Shown one piece after another: positions 16 to 16,877 of a stretch of DNA of 64,000 bases. Numbering within the stretch: the first letter of the stretch is position 1; every line of letters begins with the position of its first letter. The stretch covers positions 358,117 through 422,116 of the forward strand of contig QCUR01000001.1 in assembly GCA_003208875.1 (NCBI GenBank). The letters are read 5' to 3'. The stretch is from Prochlorococcus sp. AG-679-M23. Its GTDB lineage: Bacteria > Cyanobacteriota > Cyanobacteriia > PCC-6307 > Cyanobiaceae. Under the pieces are notes generated by a model, which saw only the letters and a program-made list of their open reading frames with translations, was not told the DNA's origin and searched no databases. Both the position numbers and the translations under genes were made by a program.

Positions 16-62
16 ATTGACATTCGGTCTAAAATTGGAGGGATAAAACCCTCCTTTTTTTT
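16..62 (+). repeat. Island gene-leader element, copy 1 (core + hairpin + T8 before ATG)
   Basis: ATTGACATTCGGTCTAAAATT, then GGAGGG-ATAAAA-CCCTCC, T8 and ATG at 63; matches copies at 334 and 2287. Confidence 0.8.
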
Positions 63-326
63 ATGAACACACTCATCATTTCAACTTTTAGCTGTACATT
101 TGAGGAATTTAAAAATGATGTTACTAATTTATTTCTTGAAGAAATGTGCAAAGAATTTGTGACTGATTATGAGTTTGTAAAAGTCAATGATCATAAATCT
201 CATTTATTAATGAACTGTACTGACTTAGAAAAATTAGGTGCAGAGATGGAATCGCCTTTTGCAAAGGAATGGGATAAAAAAAATAATTGTAAGGATACCG
301 TATATGCAATTGAGCTTGTTGAATGA
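63..326 (+). CDS. Small acidic hypothetical protein (87 aa), possibly a distant DUF3764-like protein
   Basis: ORF directly after leader copy 1; N-terminal TFSCTFEEF resembles TFKISVPFEEW of 2329..2607. Confidence 0.7.
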   Translation: MNTLIISTFSCTFEEFKNDVTNLFLEEMCKEFVTDYEFVKVNDHKSHLLMNCTDLEKLGAEMESPFAKEWDKKNNCKDTVYAIELVE

Positions 327-333
327 TGTGATC

Positions 334-379
334 ATTGACGGTTGATCTAAAGTAGATAGTGTATAAAAGCGCTTTTTTT
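334..379 (+). repeat. Island gene-leader element, copy 2
   Basis: ATTGACGGTTGATCTAAAGTA, then AGTGT-ATAAAA-GCGCT, T7 and ATG at 380. Confidence 0.8.
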
Positions 380-505
380 ATGTCCTCTTCAATGAAAGAT
401 TTCTTGGATAAATTTTTTGATTTATGTAGAGAATATCAAGAAGAAATTCCACCTCAAAAGATGGCTGAAGTTTTAAGAGATTACGCAGATAGGTTAGATG
501 GATAA
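380..505 (+). CDS. 41-aa protein MSSSMKDFLDKFFDLCREYQEEIPPQKMAEVLRDYADRLDG (not in ORF track)
   Basis: Manual translation; follows leader copy 2; its TAA overlaps the next ATG (TAATG). Confidence 0.75.
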   Translation: MSSSMKDFLDKFFDLCREYQEEIPPQKMAEVLRDYADRLDG

Positions 506-690
506 TGTTAAATACAGATGAAGCAACTGCATTAGCCAATTGGATACAAAACTGGAAAAAAACTTATAAGGAAAATCCAAAGTTAAATGAATGTATTACA
601 TGGTTTGAATGGAAATACCAAGATAGAGAACTTACTTCAAGTGATAAGAGTTCAATCGCAACTATTTTGAGATATAACTCGGAAGAATAA
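505..690 (+). CDS. Small hypothetical protein (61 aa, Trp-rich)
   Basis: ORF track; translationally coupled to the upstream ORF. Confidence 0.7.
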   Translation: MLNTDEATALANWIQNWKKTYKENPKLNECITWFEWKYQDRELTSSDKSSIATILRYNSEE

Positions 691-692
691 TT

Positions 693-785
693 ATGTATTG
701 AATAGCTATTACTTATGGAGTTGTTAGTTTGTTATTACTTGGTGGCTTTGTGTATTTAACCTTCAAAATGACCTCTAAAAAATGA
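693..785 (+). pseudogene. Single-TM micro-protein with in-frame TGA at codon 3 (MY*IAITYGVVSLLLLGGFVYLTFKMTSKK)
   Basis: Manual translation; hydrophobic helix plus basic tail; ATGA overlap with the next ORF. Confidence 0.5.
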
Positions 786-877
786 TTGGAAGTTTGCCTA
801 AATTAATTGCTCTTCTTATGGTCTTGCTACTTGTAGGTAGTACTTTTGTTGGTGGGATTATTTACTTTATAAAATGA
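782..877 (+). CDS. 31-aa single-TM micro-protein MIGSLPKLIALLMVLLLVGSTFVGGIIYFIK
   Basis: Manual translation; ATGA overlaps at both ends. Confidence 0.55.
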   Translation: MIGSLPKLIALLMVLLLVGSTFVGGIIYFIK

Positions 878-1029
878 AAAAGTGTGATTGATGTAATAAG
901 GAAGATGTGATCCATTACAGAGTAAAATCTATAAATTATAAAAGTTGGATTTTTTGCTGCAAGCAATGTTGGGATATTGTTTCAAAAGAAAGCCAATATT
1001 CTTATGGTGGAACAAGAAAATCAAAATAA
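874..1029 (+). pseudogene. Small CxxC...CxxC protein with in-frame TGA at codon 6 (MKKCD*CNKEDVIHYRVKSINYKSWIFCCKQCWDIVSKESQYSYGGTRKSK)
   Basis: Manual translation; two Cys pairs and a YGGT tail resembling a small cyanobacterial Zn-finger-like family; TGA at 889-891. Confidence 0.65.
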
Positions 1030-1143
1030 ATGGAATTTTTTACTGAAATTTGGAATAGTCAACCAGCTACAGTTATTGGTGTAGGAACAGCAACTTTAAT
1101 ATTATTGGGAATTTATATATTTTTACTCAATACATATAAGTAA
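1030..1143 (+). CDS. 37-aa single-TM micro-protein MEFFTEIWNSQPATVIGVGTATLILLGIYIFLLNTYK
   Basis: Manual translation; ATG directly after the previous TAA; TAATG overlap with 1143..1538. Confidence 0.6.
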   Translation: MEFFTEIWNSQPATVIGVGTATLILLGIYIFLLNTYK

Positions 1144-1538
1144 TGATTGAAGAAGGAGAAATAATTGAAATTCCAGTAGAAAATCCTACTTATTTCACTA
1201 AGACAAAGCAAAAAGAAATAGGGATTATTGTTTTTAGTTCTCTTACTGTAGTTTTATTATTATTGGCTATAACTGTTAGGAATAAGCCTGAAAATGTTTC
1301 CAGAAGAAAAGAATTAAAAGAAGCAGAGAATGAAAGAAATCAAGAAGCCAGAGAAAATTATATAAAGGATTTAATGGCTGATCCTTATTTAAATATAGTT
1401 ACAGAAGATTTTTTTGAGGTACATAAAGAAAGATTAAAGGAGCATAGAATCTCAATATATCAAGGGGTTACATATTATTTAGGTAAAAAAGGAGGTCTTT
1501 ATTATCGGAGCTCCAAAGGTACAAGAATTTATATCTAA
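1143..1538 (+). CDS. Single-TM hypothetical protein with charged coil and C-terminal GKKGGLYY motif
   Basis: ORF track; TM segment IGIIVFSSLTVVLLLLAITV. Confidence 0.75.
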   Translation: MIEEGEIIEIPVENPTYFTKTKQKEIGIIVFSSLTVVLLLLAITVRNKPENVSRRKELKEAENERNQEARENYIKDLMADPYLNIVTEDFFEVHKERLKEHRISIYQGVTYYLGKKGGLYYRSSKGTRIYI

Positions 1539-1615
1539 TTTTTAAGTATTTAATCCTGTTGAAACTAATAAATACTTTATCTAGAATTCTAAAAATTATA
1601 AATTTGGGGAAATTT

Positions 1616-1759
1616 ATGAGTGGAGATTATGAGACATTAGAAATCAATCAACCTAAGATTTCTTATTTTAATAAAAGATCGGAAGATAATACTTTATGGC
1701 TAGATGAAATGATTAATAAAATTGAAGAAATGAAAAACAACATTAGCGAAGCTGCTTAG
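1616..1759 (+). CDS. Small hypothetical protein (47 aa from ATG 1616; track start 1559 is TTG)
   Basis: GGGGA upstream of ATG 1616 favours this start. Confidence 0.55.
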   Translation: MSGDYETLEINQPKISYFNKRSEDNTLWLDEMINKIEEMKNNISEAA

Positions 1760-1832
1760 AAATTAAAAATTTAAAAAAACATTTGCATAATTTCTTACCT
1801 TTGGTAATTTTAGTGAGCTTTAATAAGTTCAA

Positions 1833-2042
1833 ATGCAAGATCAAAGTATTGAAAAGATAGCAGCAGTTGCAGTAAACATAACTAGGGTGCTGGTAATAAT
1901 TTATCTAGGCTTAGTAGAGGTATTTAAAATAGGCAAATCACTTAGAAAGATTTTAGTTACTGATAATTCTCAAAAATGGGCTTCACAAGCTTATTCAATT
2001 CTAAAAAGACGACAAGCTAAACAAAAATTAGCGGGAGTTTAG
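1833..2042 (+). CDS. Small hypothetical membrane-associated protein (69 aa)
   Basis: ORF track; hydrophobic N-half, basic C-half. Confidence 0.55.
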   Translation: MQDQSIEKIAAVAVNITRVLVIIYLGLVEVFKIGKSLRKILVTDNSQKWASQAYSILKRRQAKQKLAGV

Positions 2043-2228
2043 AAAATTAGTTATTTAGTTTTAGTTGTTTCGGTATTAATACCGATATACAGAAAATATT
2101 ATTCGTAGTAATTTCTAGTTAATTAAATGGAGGGATCAGAAATGATTGATAGTCCACCAGAGAATTTAATTAGATTGGTTTAAACAGCCAAATCCTACTA
2201 AATAAAAATAAGCTAAGTATTCCTATAG

Positions 2229-2270
2229 GAGGTTGTTTTCATTTAAAGGCTGAGTTCAACCTCTTTTTTT
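2229..2270 (+). terminator. Terminator-like hairpin with T7 tail
   Basis: GAGGTTG (2229-2235) pairs with CAACCTC (2257-2263), followed by TTTTTTT; loop is long (21 nt). Confidence 0.45.
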
Positions 2271-2286
2271 GATGCAGGCTTTTATC

Positions 2287-2328
2287 ATTGACAGTCGATC
2301 TAAAATAAGGGGTAATTAGTTCTTTTTT
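2287..2328 (+). repeat. Island gene-leader element, copy 3
   Basis: ATTGACAGTCGATCTAAAATA, weak AAGGG/TTCTT stem, T6 and ATG at 2329. Confidence 0.8.
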
Positions 2329-2607
2329 ATGTCTCTTGAAACTACTGTTTTCACTTTCAAAATAAGTGTCCCTTTTGAAGAATGGGCTGCGGTTTATGAC
2401 AGCGAAGAAAATATACAAATGAATAAAGAACGTGGAATTATTTGCCTATATAAAGGTTTAATGAAAGATGATCCAACCAATGTAATTCTTATTGAGCAGG
2501 GTGAAGAAGGGAAATCAAAAGCTATGTTTGAAGATCCAGCAGTGAAACCATTAATTGAGAGTGCAGGTCATATTTATGATTCAACCGTAATATCCAGTTA
2601 CTTCTAA
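2329..2607 (+). CDS. DUF3764-family protein
   Basis: ETTVFTFKISVPFEEWAAVYDS...LYKG...DDP...IESAGHI pattern typical of this picocyanobacterial family. Confidence 0.75.
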   Translation: MSLETTVFTFKISVPFEEWAAVYDSEENIQMNKERGIICLYKGLMKDDPTNVILIEQGEEGKSKAMFEDPAVKPLIESAGHIYDSTVISSYF

Positions 2608-3159
2608 GTGAAACGCTTATTGCTCGCATCGCTTTTATTAGGTTTTATTTCTCCAGTAATGGCTAAAGAAATTTGTACCCTTACAAGTGAAGTAGAACCA
2701 GATGTAACTATAACTTTGCAAAACTCTGGTTCTTCTTATGGTGTAGGGACTCTTAATTATAAAAACAAACCTTCATTAGGTTTCGATGTAGGTATCTGGA
2801 ATGGATATGGAGGTCAGTATTACACTGCAAGATCATATTCACCTGAATTATTAAAAGAAGAAAAAACCTTTCAAGAAAGAACAAAAAATACAAAAGAGAT
2901 TAGAACAGGACATTTTATGAATTTTGTGGGAAATCAATTAGGAAGAGCAACTAAAATAATGGATAGAAAATCTGGAAAATTAAGAGCATTAATGCCTTCA
3001 CTTTCACAAGGTTATTATTATTCGATTCCTTTTACAGAAGAGGGACAATATGGGAGACAGAAATTATCAAAAGAGATGAAAACTATTATTGACGCTACAG
3101 AGGGATTTTTTGTTGATTCAGGAGGATGCAGAAAATTCTTTCCTTATGGATGGGATTAG
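2608..3159 (+). CDS. Secreted hypothetical protein (183 aa)
   Basis: Signal peptide MKRLLLASLLLGFISPVMA; GTG start directly abuts the previous stop; two Cys. Confidence 0.8.
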   Translation: MKRLLLASLLLGFISPVMAKEICTLTSEVEPDVTITLQNSGSSYGVGTLNYKNKPSLGFDVGIWNGYGGQYYTARSYSPELLKEEKTFQERTKNTKEIRTGHFMNFVGNQLGRATKIMDRKSGKLRALMPSLSQGYYYSIPFTEEGQYGRQKLSKEMKTIIDATEGFFVDSGGCRKFFPYGWD

Positions 3160-3404
3160 ATGAGAGGATATTTTTCATTCTCCGCACTTCTATGCAGTAG
3201 AAGAGGACCATTTATATAGTCATTGATCGCCTCTCCAAGGGTGATGGGGATATCTAGGAAAACCTTTTTTGTTCTCTCTTCAACCGCATTCTCCCAGGAT
3301 TGGGCCAGATCCCTGGAAAGAAATGTTCTGGATCTCGGACCGACATAATTCTTCCTTCTTATTAGGACCTGCCAGCCGCTGCCGCTTCTTCTGATTGTTG
3401 CCAT
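3156..3404 (-). pseudogene. N-terminal fragment of a phage-type tyrosine integrase
   Basis: MATIRRSGSGWQVLIRRK...SRTF..RDLAQSW...E...ITLGEAINDY matches integrase N-terminal arm-binding/core-binding start; no catalytic domain; about 47% GC at 3301-3360; next to tRNA 3' end. Confidence 0.75.
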
Positions 3405-3544
3405 TTCGGTGTCATCGTATGTGTGATGCACCTCCAGATATCTACCTTTAAAACAGAAAAGTAGACCCGCAATCGGACGTCCACTTCTGATGAATTCTTT
3501 TTAGCGATAGTGATAATCTCTTTGATACCAAGTTATCCAACGAG

Positions 3545-3616
<72 letters not shown>

Positions 3617-3626
3617 TGAAAAAAAG

Positions 3627-3708
3627 TGGGCCGGGTTGGATTTGAACCAACGTAGGCAGAGCCAGCGGATTTACAGTCCGCCCCCTTTAACCACTCGGGC
3701 ACCGACCC
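3627..3708 (-). tRNA. tRNA-Tyr(GTA)
   Basis: Reverse complement GGGTCGGTGCCCGAGTGGTTAAAGGGGGCGGACTGTAAATCCGC...GGTTCAAATCCAACCCGGCCCA; long variable arm, anticodon GTA. Confidence 0.97.
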
Positions 3709-14951: not shown

Positions 14952-16877
14952 ATGGAAGAATTAGCATATTGGCCTGCAGCAAAATCTCTTTCACAAAATG
15001 AAAAATTTACAAGTAAAAGGAAAGATATAAATAATCTTGATCATGTTGATCAAATATGGGAATACTTAAAATTAAAATGTGGGAATACAGTAGCTATTAA
15101 TGATTTGAGAGGAAAGAATAAAGAAAAAATTTCCTATTCTGAGTTAGCTAATTTAATCACTAAAGTCTCTAATTCTTTTAAAAATTATGGAGTAGTTAAA
15201 GGTGATGTTGTCACATTTATATCTGAAAACTCACCAAGATGGTTAATAGCTGATCAAGGGTTGATGCGATTAGGAGCTATTAATGCTGTAAGAGGTATTA
15301 ATTCACCTTCAGTAGAATTAGATTACATAATTGAGCATTCTAATTCTGTTGGTCTAATTGTTCAATCTAAGGAAGTTTGGTTGAAATTAAATAAAAAAAA
15401 TGAATTAAAAAAAAGATTTAAATTTATAATTAATCTGGAAGATGAACAATTTGAAGATTTAATAAATTGGCCTGAATTTATAAAAGCAGGAGAAAAAAAT
15501 CTTTTAAAAAATAATAGTTTCGAAAAATATAATCATCATAGTAACGATATTGCCAGCATTCTCTATACATCAGGGACAACAGGCAAACCAAAAGGTGTTC
15601 CCTTGACACATGCAAACTTTTTACATCAAATCATTAATCTGGCCCATATCGCCGATCCAGAACCCGGAACTGCTGTCTTGAGTGTGTTACCTATCTGGCA
15701 TTCGTATGAAAGAAGTGCTGAATATTTCTTTTTTTCATGCGGGTGTACTCAATTTTATACAAATCCAAAATTCCTGAAAGATGATATTAAACAAGTTAAG
15801 CCAGTTGTTATGGCTACTGTTCCTAGGCTATGGGAGGCTATTCATGATGGCTTTTTCTTGGCTTTAAAAAAAATGCCTCCTAAAAAACAAAAAATCATAA
15901 AGGTTTTGATAAAGAATAGTTCTATTTTTAAAAGAAATTTAAGAAAGATCAGAAATTTAGAAATTAATCAAGTAAGTTCTTTAGCAAAAATATCTTTGAC
16001 AATATCTATAATAGGAAGATTTTTGATACATAAGATATCTTCTACTTTTTTATGGCCAAGTATTTTGAAACAATTATGTGGAGAAAAACTTAAATTTCCA
16101 ATCAATGGTGGGGGTGCTTTACCTGAGCACGTAGATTTGTTTTTTGAATCTTTAGGTATAGATGTTCTAGTCGGTTATGGATTAACAGAAACTAGTCCAG
16201 TACTAACTTGTAGAAGAAGAGAACTTAATGTAAGGGGATCTTCTGGACAGCCATTGGCATTTACTGAAATTAAAATAATGAATGAAGAAAAAGATAAGAT
16301 TTTGAAATTTAAAGAGATAGGCAAGATTCTTGTTAAAGGACCTCAAGTTATGAAAGGTTATTTGAATAATATTTCAGCTACTAAAGATGTTTTATCAAGA
16401 GATGGTTGGTTTGATACTGGAGATTTGGGTTTTCTTATTCCAAATGGATCTTTGGTTATAACAGGGCGAGCCAAGGATACGATAGTTCTTTCTAGTGGTG
16501 AAAATATAGAGCCAAGTCCCCTTGAAACTGAGATTCTTAGTTCTGAATTTATTAATCAAGTTCAACTAGTAGGTCAAGACAAAAAGTGTTTAACAGCACT
16601 TGTCGCTCCAAACATAGAATTAGTAGAAAATAAATTCTTTGAAAATGATATTTCTAAATTAAATACGAATAAAAAAATTGGTTTGTTTTTTAAGTCGCAG
16701 ATAAATAATTTGTTAAAAAACAGATTAGGAGCAAGATTTGAGGAACAGGTATTAGATTGCTATTTTGTTGATGCTTTTACTTTAGAAAATGGTTTATTGA
16801 CTCAAACTCTTAAGCAGAAAAGAAGAGAAATAGTTGATTTATATTCATCACAAATAGAAGAAATGTATAAAAAATAA
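14952..16877 (+). CDS. Long-chain acyl-ACP/acyl-CoA synthetase (Aas/FadD)
   Basis: YTSGTTGKPKG, GYGLTET, GWFDTGDLG, GRAKD. Confidence 0.92.
   Translation: MEELAYWPAAKSLSQNEKFTSKRKDINNLDHVDQIWEYLKLKCGNTVAINDLRGKNKEKISYSELANLITKVSNSFKNYGVVKGDVVTFISENSPRWLIADQGLMRLGAINAVRGINSPSVELDYIIEHSNSVGLIVQSKEVWLKLNKKNELKKRFKFIINLEDEQFEDLINWPEFIKAGEKNLLKNNSFEKYNHHSNDIASILYTSGTTGKPKGVPLTHANFLHQIINLAHIADPEPGTAVLSVLPIWHSYERSAEYFFFSCGCTQFYTNPKFLKDDIKQVKPVVMATVPRLWEAIHDGFFLALKKMPPKKQKIIKVLIKNSSIFKRNLRKIRNLEINQVSSLAKISLTISIIGRFLIHKISSTFLWPSILKQLCGEKLKFPINGGGALPEHVDLFFESLGIDVLVGYGLTETSPVLTCRRRELNVRGSSGQPLAFTEIKIMNEEKDKILKFKEIGKILVKGPQVMKGYLNNISATKDVLSRDGWFDTGDLGFLIPNGSLVITGRAKDTIVLSSGENIEPSPLETEILSSEFINQVQLVGQDKKCLTALVAPNIELVENKFFENDISKLNTNKKIGLFFKSQINNLLKNRLGARFEEQVLDCYFVDAFTLENGLLTQTLKQKRREIVDLYSSQIEEMYKK

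Follow-up and report, generated by a model that had tools for sequence, protein, structure and literature searches.

A short element in front of small island genes of Prochlorococcus very probably serves, to judge from comparison of its copies, as the joint between swappable gene cassettes, with exchange taking place inside a 16-base core. Three copies lie at the start of the window, by which we mean the whole stretch of 64,000 nucleotides of Prochlorococcus sp. AG-679-M23 that was analysed (contig QCUR01000001.1, positions 358,117 to 422,116, forward strand) and that forms the edge of an island. Comparison of sequences among genomes brings out the cassette unit, the crossover zone, the reordering of cassettes, a match of the core to tRNA-Asn and the adjacency of the core to integrase genes, the last two of which had no part in the first-pass annotation of the window. 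The repeat itself is real, widespread and probably the known PRE1 (Prochlorococcus repeat element 1); the cassette structure and the tRNA link appear to be undescribed. Together they make up an integron-like cassette system that is, nevertheless, not an integron.

A repeat family with a nearly invariant core

The first-pass annotation had reported three copies of a leader element at 16, 334 and 2287, and these were found letter for letter as described, including the T runs (8, 7 and 6 nt, respectively) and the ATG codons at 63, 380 and 2329. It had also seen no copy in the core genome, in agreement with the absence of any strong copy between 3.7 and 64 kb of the window, the only other trace being a weak one at 785. 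The consensus drawn from the three copies held up in part: it gave three matches (with at most 3 mismatches) where shuffled sequence gave a mean of 0.10 and none of 100 shuffles reached three, a comparison that is circular because the pattern was made from the same copies, but it is degenerate. Copies 1 and 2 are decayed, so that the consensus blurs a nearly invariant core, the true form of which is ATTGACAGTCGATCTA.

The suggested matrix scan for further, island-clustered copies was borne out. A matrix trained on other genomes found 13 strong copies in this genome (score at least 18) against 0-3 in 10 shuffles, and when the matrix was built from nothing but the three window copies, the next ranks went to eight further full elements. 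All 41 genomes of the genus (denoted g1) gave 4-18 matches each, the reversed control giving one match in all, and the matches listed are grouped into a small number of stretches in each genome. Of 151 genomes sampled across the family, 7 had a match with one mismatch allowed (five of them g1, two with single matches), and the named records bearing the core are nearly all Prochlorococcus. A single dif-like copy in other genera was considered and discarded, as matches with 2 mismatches were scattered at control level, genus g60 excepted. In g60 a variant element was found by pattern in 35/41 genomes, with hairpin and T run as in g1 and likewise with changes of partner, and a third variant occurs in genera g54, g34, g21, g15 and g27. 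One locus of genus g18 (L334:626, genome G101) carries a full g1-type element, possibly on a transferred cassette. No element precedes the DUF3764 genes outside the genus, no Rfam family matches the element and no match was found among 50,697 phage records. Viral contigs contained nine matching stretches, with a full element in three contigs and always at the contig end. In L347 (1-1100) a uvsX region of T4-like cyanophage type (82% to P-TIM68) adjoins three elements and two cargo genes at a contig end; this may be a real capture or a chimera and is therefore not used as support for carriage by phages.

The element measures 46-48 nt and consists of the core, a TAnnnT box, a G-rich hairpin and a T run, usually followed by a start codon. 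All 16 core positions are 89-100% conserved in 83 sites that were chosen by the hairpin alone, and 79 of 96 distinct metagenomic sites picked by hairpin A only carry the core in register. The TAnnnT box occupies positions 15-20 in 261 of 276 representative sites. Two types of hairpin occur, A (AAGGRGC/GCTCCTT) and B (AGAGGG/CCCTCT), with a median folding energy of -8.7 kcal/mol against -0.8 kcal/mol after shuffling. A fixed distance to the ATG had been suggested for testing, and a start codon lies 41-47 nt from the first base in 189/276 sites, but 69/276 have no ATG or GTG at the expected distance. The cargo is small (median 87 aa), and a Pfam match was obtained for 15 of the 50 ORFs (open reading frames) scanned, i.e. 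48 cargo representatives and two others, mainly with DUF3764, DUF3804, DUF1330, DUF3303, cupin, PDZ and 2OG-Fe(II) families. The core was also evaluated as an RNA hairpin and rejected as such, its fold being weak and compensatory changes absent.

A promoter role for the element is plausible from its sequence pattern. The TTGACA within the core was discarded as a working -35 box: the only TAnnnT box lies 7 nt away, so that the two cannot form one sigma-70 promoter, and the promoter scan did not call these sites. The first-pass annotation had likened the core to a TetR-type operator. More generally, the core could be a repressor operator overlapping a promoter, with copies spread and shuffled by illegitimate recombination, in line with the imperfect palindrome beside the TAnnnT box and with a cargo enriched in small DUF3764, DUF3804, DUF3303, DUF1330, cupin and 2OG-Fe(II) genes, reminiscent of a stress regulon. 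The core centre is, however, as conserved as the arms, no TetR_N match is present in this genome, which is 99.99% complete (regulators of other families were not searched for), and an operator leaves the tracking of tRNA-Asn, the sites without a gene behind them and the adjacency to integrases unexplained. We give this explanation little credence. One candidate binder by its sequence is a 74-aa island ORF (G000:C6:4129-4353) that looks ribbon-helix-helix-like by eye.

Exchange of genes within the core

The 338 distinct sites combine 167 upstream clusters with 148 downstream clusters in 276 combinations. The base at position 0 tracks the upstream flank (208/260 pairs, against 0.41 at random), and the hairpin type tracks the downstream gene (190/237, against 0.53 at random) but shows no such link to the flank (80/153). 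Pairs are not mutually independent; for both relations none of 2000 permutations equalled the data. As the bases left of the core go with the upstream gene and the hairpin with the downstream gene, genes appear to be exchanged inside the core. This supports the recombination-site or cassette option of the first-pass annotation, and of its expectation that breakpoints fall at one position of the motif the exchange inside the core stands, though the cut position within the core is not mappable.

Among clusters with at least three members, all 30 of those formed by flanks and 31 of the 32 formed by genes have at least two partners. Of 77 pairs in which near-identical tails precede unlike genes, 38 combine two hairpin types, against a random expectation of 0.46; in 25 of these 38 the common run is only 16-20 nt and the rest have decayed cores. 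Hairpin types thus differ as often as at random and runs of 16-20 nt suffice, which implies that longer homology gives no advantage. Each core-to-core unit consists of a core, a leader, one or two small genes and a short tail, spans 0.2-1.5 kb and carries no enzyme; all nine recurrent units, including that at 16-333 of the window, have at least two upstream partners. Two genes occur in both orders (locus L064 versus L086), an arrangement that deletion alone cannot give. Neighbouring sites lie on the same strand in 44 cases and on opposite strands in 6, and no inverted-core product of the right-right type was found. In 35 of 129 flanks an ORF stops no more than 15 nt from the core, against 85 of 2000 random places. 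Many pre-core tails are truncated starts of the common MKRLLL signal-peptide genes, with just the first 9-10 codons left (e.g. L061:4117-4150 and window position 2608). A 2547-bp duplication in L063 was set aside, as its start is not at a core.

Some of these features could also be expected of a selfish or neutral dispersed repeat, of the REP (repetitive extragenic palindromic) or MITE (miniature inverted-repeat transposable element) kind, that captured tRNA sequence once, was homogenised by gene conversion and was trimmed against gene ends by deletions. The many decayed copies, the junctions scattered over 30 nt and a head-to-head fusion of two elements through one common hairpin (L061:15538-15595, with elements at 15538 and 15595) would suit such an origin. 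The strict orientation to start codons and the lineage-wise tracking of tRNA-Asn would not, and neither a cognate transposase nor a target duplication was found, so that we consider it quite improbable.

Match of the core to tRNA-Asn

A weak matrix match proved to be the tRNA-Asn gene. At 14 of 15 positions the core agrees with the reverse-complemented anticodon arm of tRNA-Asn, with the loop at the centre of the match, and it has the same geometry (arm, 7-nt loop, arm) as anticodon-centred tRNA attachment (att) sites. Of 3000 shuffled queries only 8 reached 13/15 in any tRNA; a likeness to the tRNA-Tyr arm (11/15) was dismissed as within chance. In three lineages, each with its own element variant, the tRNA-Asn of the lineage itself is the best partner, for 258/276, 22/24 and 7/7 sites, respectively, and the consensus positions -2 to 14 pair with its arm without a true mismatch. 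All 8 differences of the consensus from the tRNA arm (at 4 positions) are of the G-U type. Changes that pairing requires occurred at position 1 (g60) and position 13 (g54 versus g1), and position 9 of g60, which wobble covers, remained unchanged. The tracking is to be read with some caution: three lineages represent few independent events, and C-to-T changes, common drift in AT-rich DNA, account for three of the four wobble positions. Moreover, positions 1 and 13 are fixed in the pattern by which the g60 set was gathered, the variant having first been seen without that constraint. The g60 tRNA variant is also present in genera g41 and g12, in which no element is seen. No half-tRNA lies beside a core, and in 34 loci the tRNA-Asn gene was not seen as an insertion site.

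These pairings raise the possibility that the core acts as RNA, read-through transcripts pairing with tRNA-Asn or a fragment of it and thereby controlling termination, decay or translation at the hairpin, with gene shuffling as a by-product and crossovers landing in the core as the sole stretch common to all copies. Complete pairing with the lineage's own arm in three lineages, with differences of the G-U type only, is what such a role would predict, as are a predicted duplex of about -22 to -27 kcal/mol beside a weak hairpin of the core itself (-1.5) and the lack of an integrase at tRNA-Asn. Yet the drift, the few events and the biased g60 set just described weaken the argument, as do the g41 and g12 genomes; core and hairpin are not coupled by any fold, the tRNA arm, being folded and modified, would need opening, and exchange through 16-20 bp of homology should prefer partners of the same hairpin type, a preference that is not observed. 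On balance we hold this role to be rather unlikely.

Integrases and the search for an enzyme

In genome G102 an intact tyrosine recombinase of 391 aa ends 9 nt ahead of a perfect core. Homologues of this enzyme are present in 27 of 285 genus genomes and, with few exceptions, sit next to tRNA-Ser; a second core-adjacent integrase family occurs in 58 of 285. Of 60 integrase loci, 3 had no readable C-terminus; among the remaining 57 (including 3 outside the genus, all negative) a core lies at -5 to +22 nt of the stop of a tycheposon-type integrase in 17 (16 at a score of at least 18), against 16 of 483 other island ORFs. In a tree of these integrases, made as a quick version and not as a finished search, core-linked and unlinked alleles mix among near-identical enzymes, and linkage arises in several clades that lie far apart. 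In 7 loci with one and the same integrase flank, 6 different cassettes come first, and such loci resemble integron platforms. Adjacency is not proof of catalysis, because these integrases are directed at other tRNAs, neither family is present in this genome and the core also adjoins ordinary genes. A poly-glutamine tract that varies in length closes the tRNA-Ser integrases (L376-L390), and in a second integrase (L442:3551-4822) the last codons come from the core itself.

Among its own genes this genome has, as recombinases, a tyrosine recombinase of 386 aa, a fragment of 189 aa and a resolvase. There is no match to the integron integrase model TIGR02249 (IntI) in this genome, and the two core-adjacent integrases fall short of it as well; no Y1 transposase (PF01797) or IS110 was found above cut-off and no reverse transcriptase at all. 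The 189-aa fragment was rejected as the enzyme for lack of a close homologue in 5 genus genomes. Small serine recombinases were rejected too, a core being present in 3 of 23 evaluable loci and adjacent in none (30 loci, 7 without a located ORF). The candidate recombinase P0076 had no sequence match in PDB. Reverse transcriptases, which occur in 6 of 285 genus genomes, appear retron-like by reading and have no core in their loci, were likewise discarded; they measure 465-485 aa and lie behind a zinc-finger-like gene (L645-L650).

These results bear on a further idea, that tRNA-Asn guides or primes the exchange by annealing to the core (at an mRNA 3' end or on single-stranded DNA), after which a polymerase or RNA-guided recombinase would copy or join the cassettes. 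It would unite the tracking of the tRNA, the crossover in the core and a site just past stop codons in one mechanism. We know of no precedent for such exchange, however, and besides the scarcity of reverse transcriptases (none here, none with a core in its locus) and the lack of IS110 and Y1 transposases above cut-off, cassettes bring positions 17 onward, which would be absent from an mRNA starting near 26. We regard it as improbable.

Proposed mechanism

In the mechanism that we propose, cassettes are joined at a core of 16-20 bp shaped like the tRNA-Asn anticodon arm. A putative integrase-type enzyme is likely to cut and rejoin the core, probably a tyrosine integrase like those of tycheposons that would act in trans. 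The core would be an att-like site with arms at positions -3 to 1 and 9 to 13 around a 7-nt loop at 2 to 8; a single change in the loop would prevent recombination with the tRNA-Asn gene, and cassettes would leave as circles and then enter another core. The front of each cassette would provide a predicted -10 box, a terminator hairpin and a U-rich translation start. With transcription starting near position 26, inside the hairpin, this hairpin would stop read-through from upstream only; the promoter and terminator roles are predictions from pattern and folding. A tyrosine-integrase site is favoured because exchange ignores the length of homology and keeps orientation, and because anticodon-centred sites are the commonest class of tRNA att sites (Islander, PMC4383910). 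Taken as a whole (cassette joint, tRNA-Asn-shaped core, trans-acting integrase and leader), the mechanism is put forward tentatively, with rather less than even confidence.

Several observations weigh against it. This genome has no close homologue of either core-adjacent integrase family, and these integrases sit at tRNA-Ser. At 34 tRNA-Asn loci, some of them truncated by contig ends, no integrase lies closer than 1.5 kb; hence nothing at the DNA level accounts for the core tracking tRNA-Asn, and its differences from that tRNA obey G-U rules instead. Core variants are almost never common to partners, so that the cut cannot be placed within the core, and within one hairpin type alleles clearly follow neither side. 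New left junctions spread from -24 to +5, and core-free alleles are seldom core-like. Some exchanges must occur right of the hairpin, as one gene is found with both hairpin types. In g60 the TAnnnT box is less pronounced, and the g54-type variant lacks it. Finally, no core-to-core circle junction was found in eight runs, seen as contigs, which drop rare forms.

The readings that invoke RNA pairing are, taken together, nearly as likely as the integrase reading, since they account for the tracking of the tRNA and the DNA model does not. In general form, host tRNA-Asn (or a fragment) would be the specificity factor, its G-U-tolerant pairing with a 17-nt joint site guiding or priming exchange or switching the terminator, which we judge somewhat unlikely. 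If true, gene shuffling and expression in islands of the most abundant phototroph would be tied to the state of tRNA-Asn (nitrogen status or phage-driven tRNA cleavage). A functional complementarity to tRNA-Asn at the RNA level would, to our knowledge, be a kind of tRNA use not known in bacteria. The question addressed in either case is how single small genes enter, leave and move among Prochlorococcus islands, and what the element contributes here is an exactly delimited site of 16 bp, the cassette as a unit, natural junctions by the hundred and a few candidate enzymes, namely the P0076 and L358 families, the 386-aa housekeeping recombinase and the resolvase.

The copies in the window and their surroundings

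All features described here lie on the forward strand unless stated otherwise. Copy 1 (14-62) has a decayed core (16-31), a TAnnnT box (30-35), a type-B hairpin (37-54) and a T run (55-62), and precedes an 87-aa cargo gene without family (63-326), with which it forms the core-to-core unit 16-333; this unit is present in 4 loci with 3 different upstream flanks. Copy 2 (332-379), the core of which begins 7 nt past the stop of the 87-aa gene, likewise has a decayed core (334-349), with a box at 348-353, a weak hairpin at 358-373 and a T run to 379. It is followed by two cargo genes, one of 41 aa (380-505) and one of 61 aa (505-690), together at 380-690, the former of which was found at 9 sites with 8 different flanks. 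The weak trace at 785-805 is probably a decayed core, with a score of 10-15 that is within the range of chance matches. A small membrane-protein ORF at 692-785 is broken by an early stop, and population contigs fuse copy 1 directly to it.

The small RNA Yfr11 (2121-2270) ends 16 nt before the core of copy 3 (2285-2328), which has a perfect core (2287-2302), a box (2301-2306), a type-A-like hairpin (2308-2322) and a T run (2323-2328) and precedes a DUF3764 cargo gene of 92 aa (2329-2607). Of the four DUF3764 genes of this genome, three are preceded by a strong copy, while the copy in front of the fourth is decayed. On the reverse strand follow a 91-codon ORF (3156-3431), with a likeness to an integrase N-terminus by eye only and no Pfam, NCBIfam or PHROG match, and tRNA-Thr and tRNA-Tyr (3544-3708). 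As the tRNA-Thr is duplicated at G000:C1:357149-357220, all three copies lie within a tRNA-bounded insert of 4.5 kb (G000:C1:357147-361754, in the window up to 3638). This insert is bounded by the full tRNA-Thr(GGT) duplicate and holds a 179-aa pyrE-like ORF (named by eye), the cassettes, Yfr11 and the integrase-like stub. Metatranscriptome contigs over the region, from which strand and start are not readable, contain joints from 2304 to 367 and from 61 to 692 and loose ends at 2287 and 2328.

Comparison with known systems

A repeat named PRE1, of about 48 bp, with about 9-13 copies per genome and restricted to islands, was reportedly described by Coleman and colleagues in Science in 2006 and is said to have been proposed to mediate gene rearrangement between islands. 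The element resembles PRE1 in its 46-48 nt, its 13 strong copies and their clustering, and is probably the same repeat, judged by size, copy number and island clustering. If so, a repeat noted in 2006 acquires a mechanism.

Within the literature searched, which covered few subscription papers and neither the supplement of the PRE1 paper nor those of the bioRxiv preprints, we found no account of the cassette anatomy, the crossover zone, the tRNA-Asn match or the integrase adjacency, and word searches for the PRE1 name, the core sequence and Prochlorococcus cassettes gave nothing relevant. Neither PRE1 nor the core occurs in the accessible part of Steglich 2008 (PMC2518516), the core motif was not found in the 12 supplement files examined, out of 22, of Read 2017 (PMC5607370), and no such repeat is mentioned in the available part of the HLII recombination preprint (10.64898/2025.12.29.696893).

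Tycheposons and cryptic integrase elements (bioRxiv 10.1101/2020.12.28.424599) share the islands and the integrase family with the element, and the window copies lie in a tRNA-bounded insert. In the accessible part of that preprint, Hackl et al. describe islands that gain and lose single genes, with active elements making up 3.6% of island material and the arrival of the rest only hypothesised; att sites are partial copies of 7 tRNA or tmRNA genes, Asn not among them, and that part mentions no such repeat. The units described here differ in being enzyme-free and only 0.2-1.5 kb long, with a core that matches the anticodon arm of tRNA-Asn and not the 3' end of an island tRNA; in the stretches examined, loci with integrase and core have no downstream partial tRNA-Ser. 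Anticodon-centred attB/attP sites, which account for 2083 of 3919 islands in Islander (PMC4383910), similarly have symmetric arms around a 7-nt anticodon loop. Here, in contrast, no tRNA half is duplicated, the loop is one base off the tRNA gene and no insertions at tRNA-Asn were seen.

Repeats of the REP/IS200 type that depend on HUH enzymes differ in having a cognate Y1 transposase (PF01797), none of which lies above cut-off here. In T-box riboswitches a leader with stem I, specifier loop and antiterminator pairs with a tRNA upstream of an intrinsic terminator. The leader of the element could likewise pair with a tRNA ahead of an intrinsic terminator, but it has no stem I, specifier loop or antiterminator bulge, is a 17-nt complement to the whole arm and matches no Rfam family.

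The closest parallel in organisation is with integrons, from which the system differs in several respects. There is no IntI here, and the element has neither GTTRRRY/RYYYAAC boxes nor the long attC hairpin, its short hairpin lying at the 5' end of the cassette and travelling with the downstream gene. Where an integrase is present it points into the array, and arrays are dispersed over several islands. As in integrons, small-gene units stand in tandem on the same strand and are exchanged, and brought into new orders, at a short core; stop codons adjoin the site and some arrays start at an intact tyrosine recombinase gene. The system thus does not belong to the integrons, but it works like an integron array.

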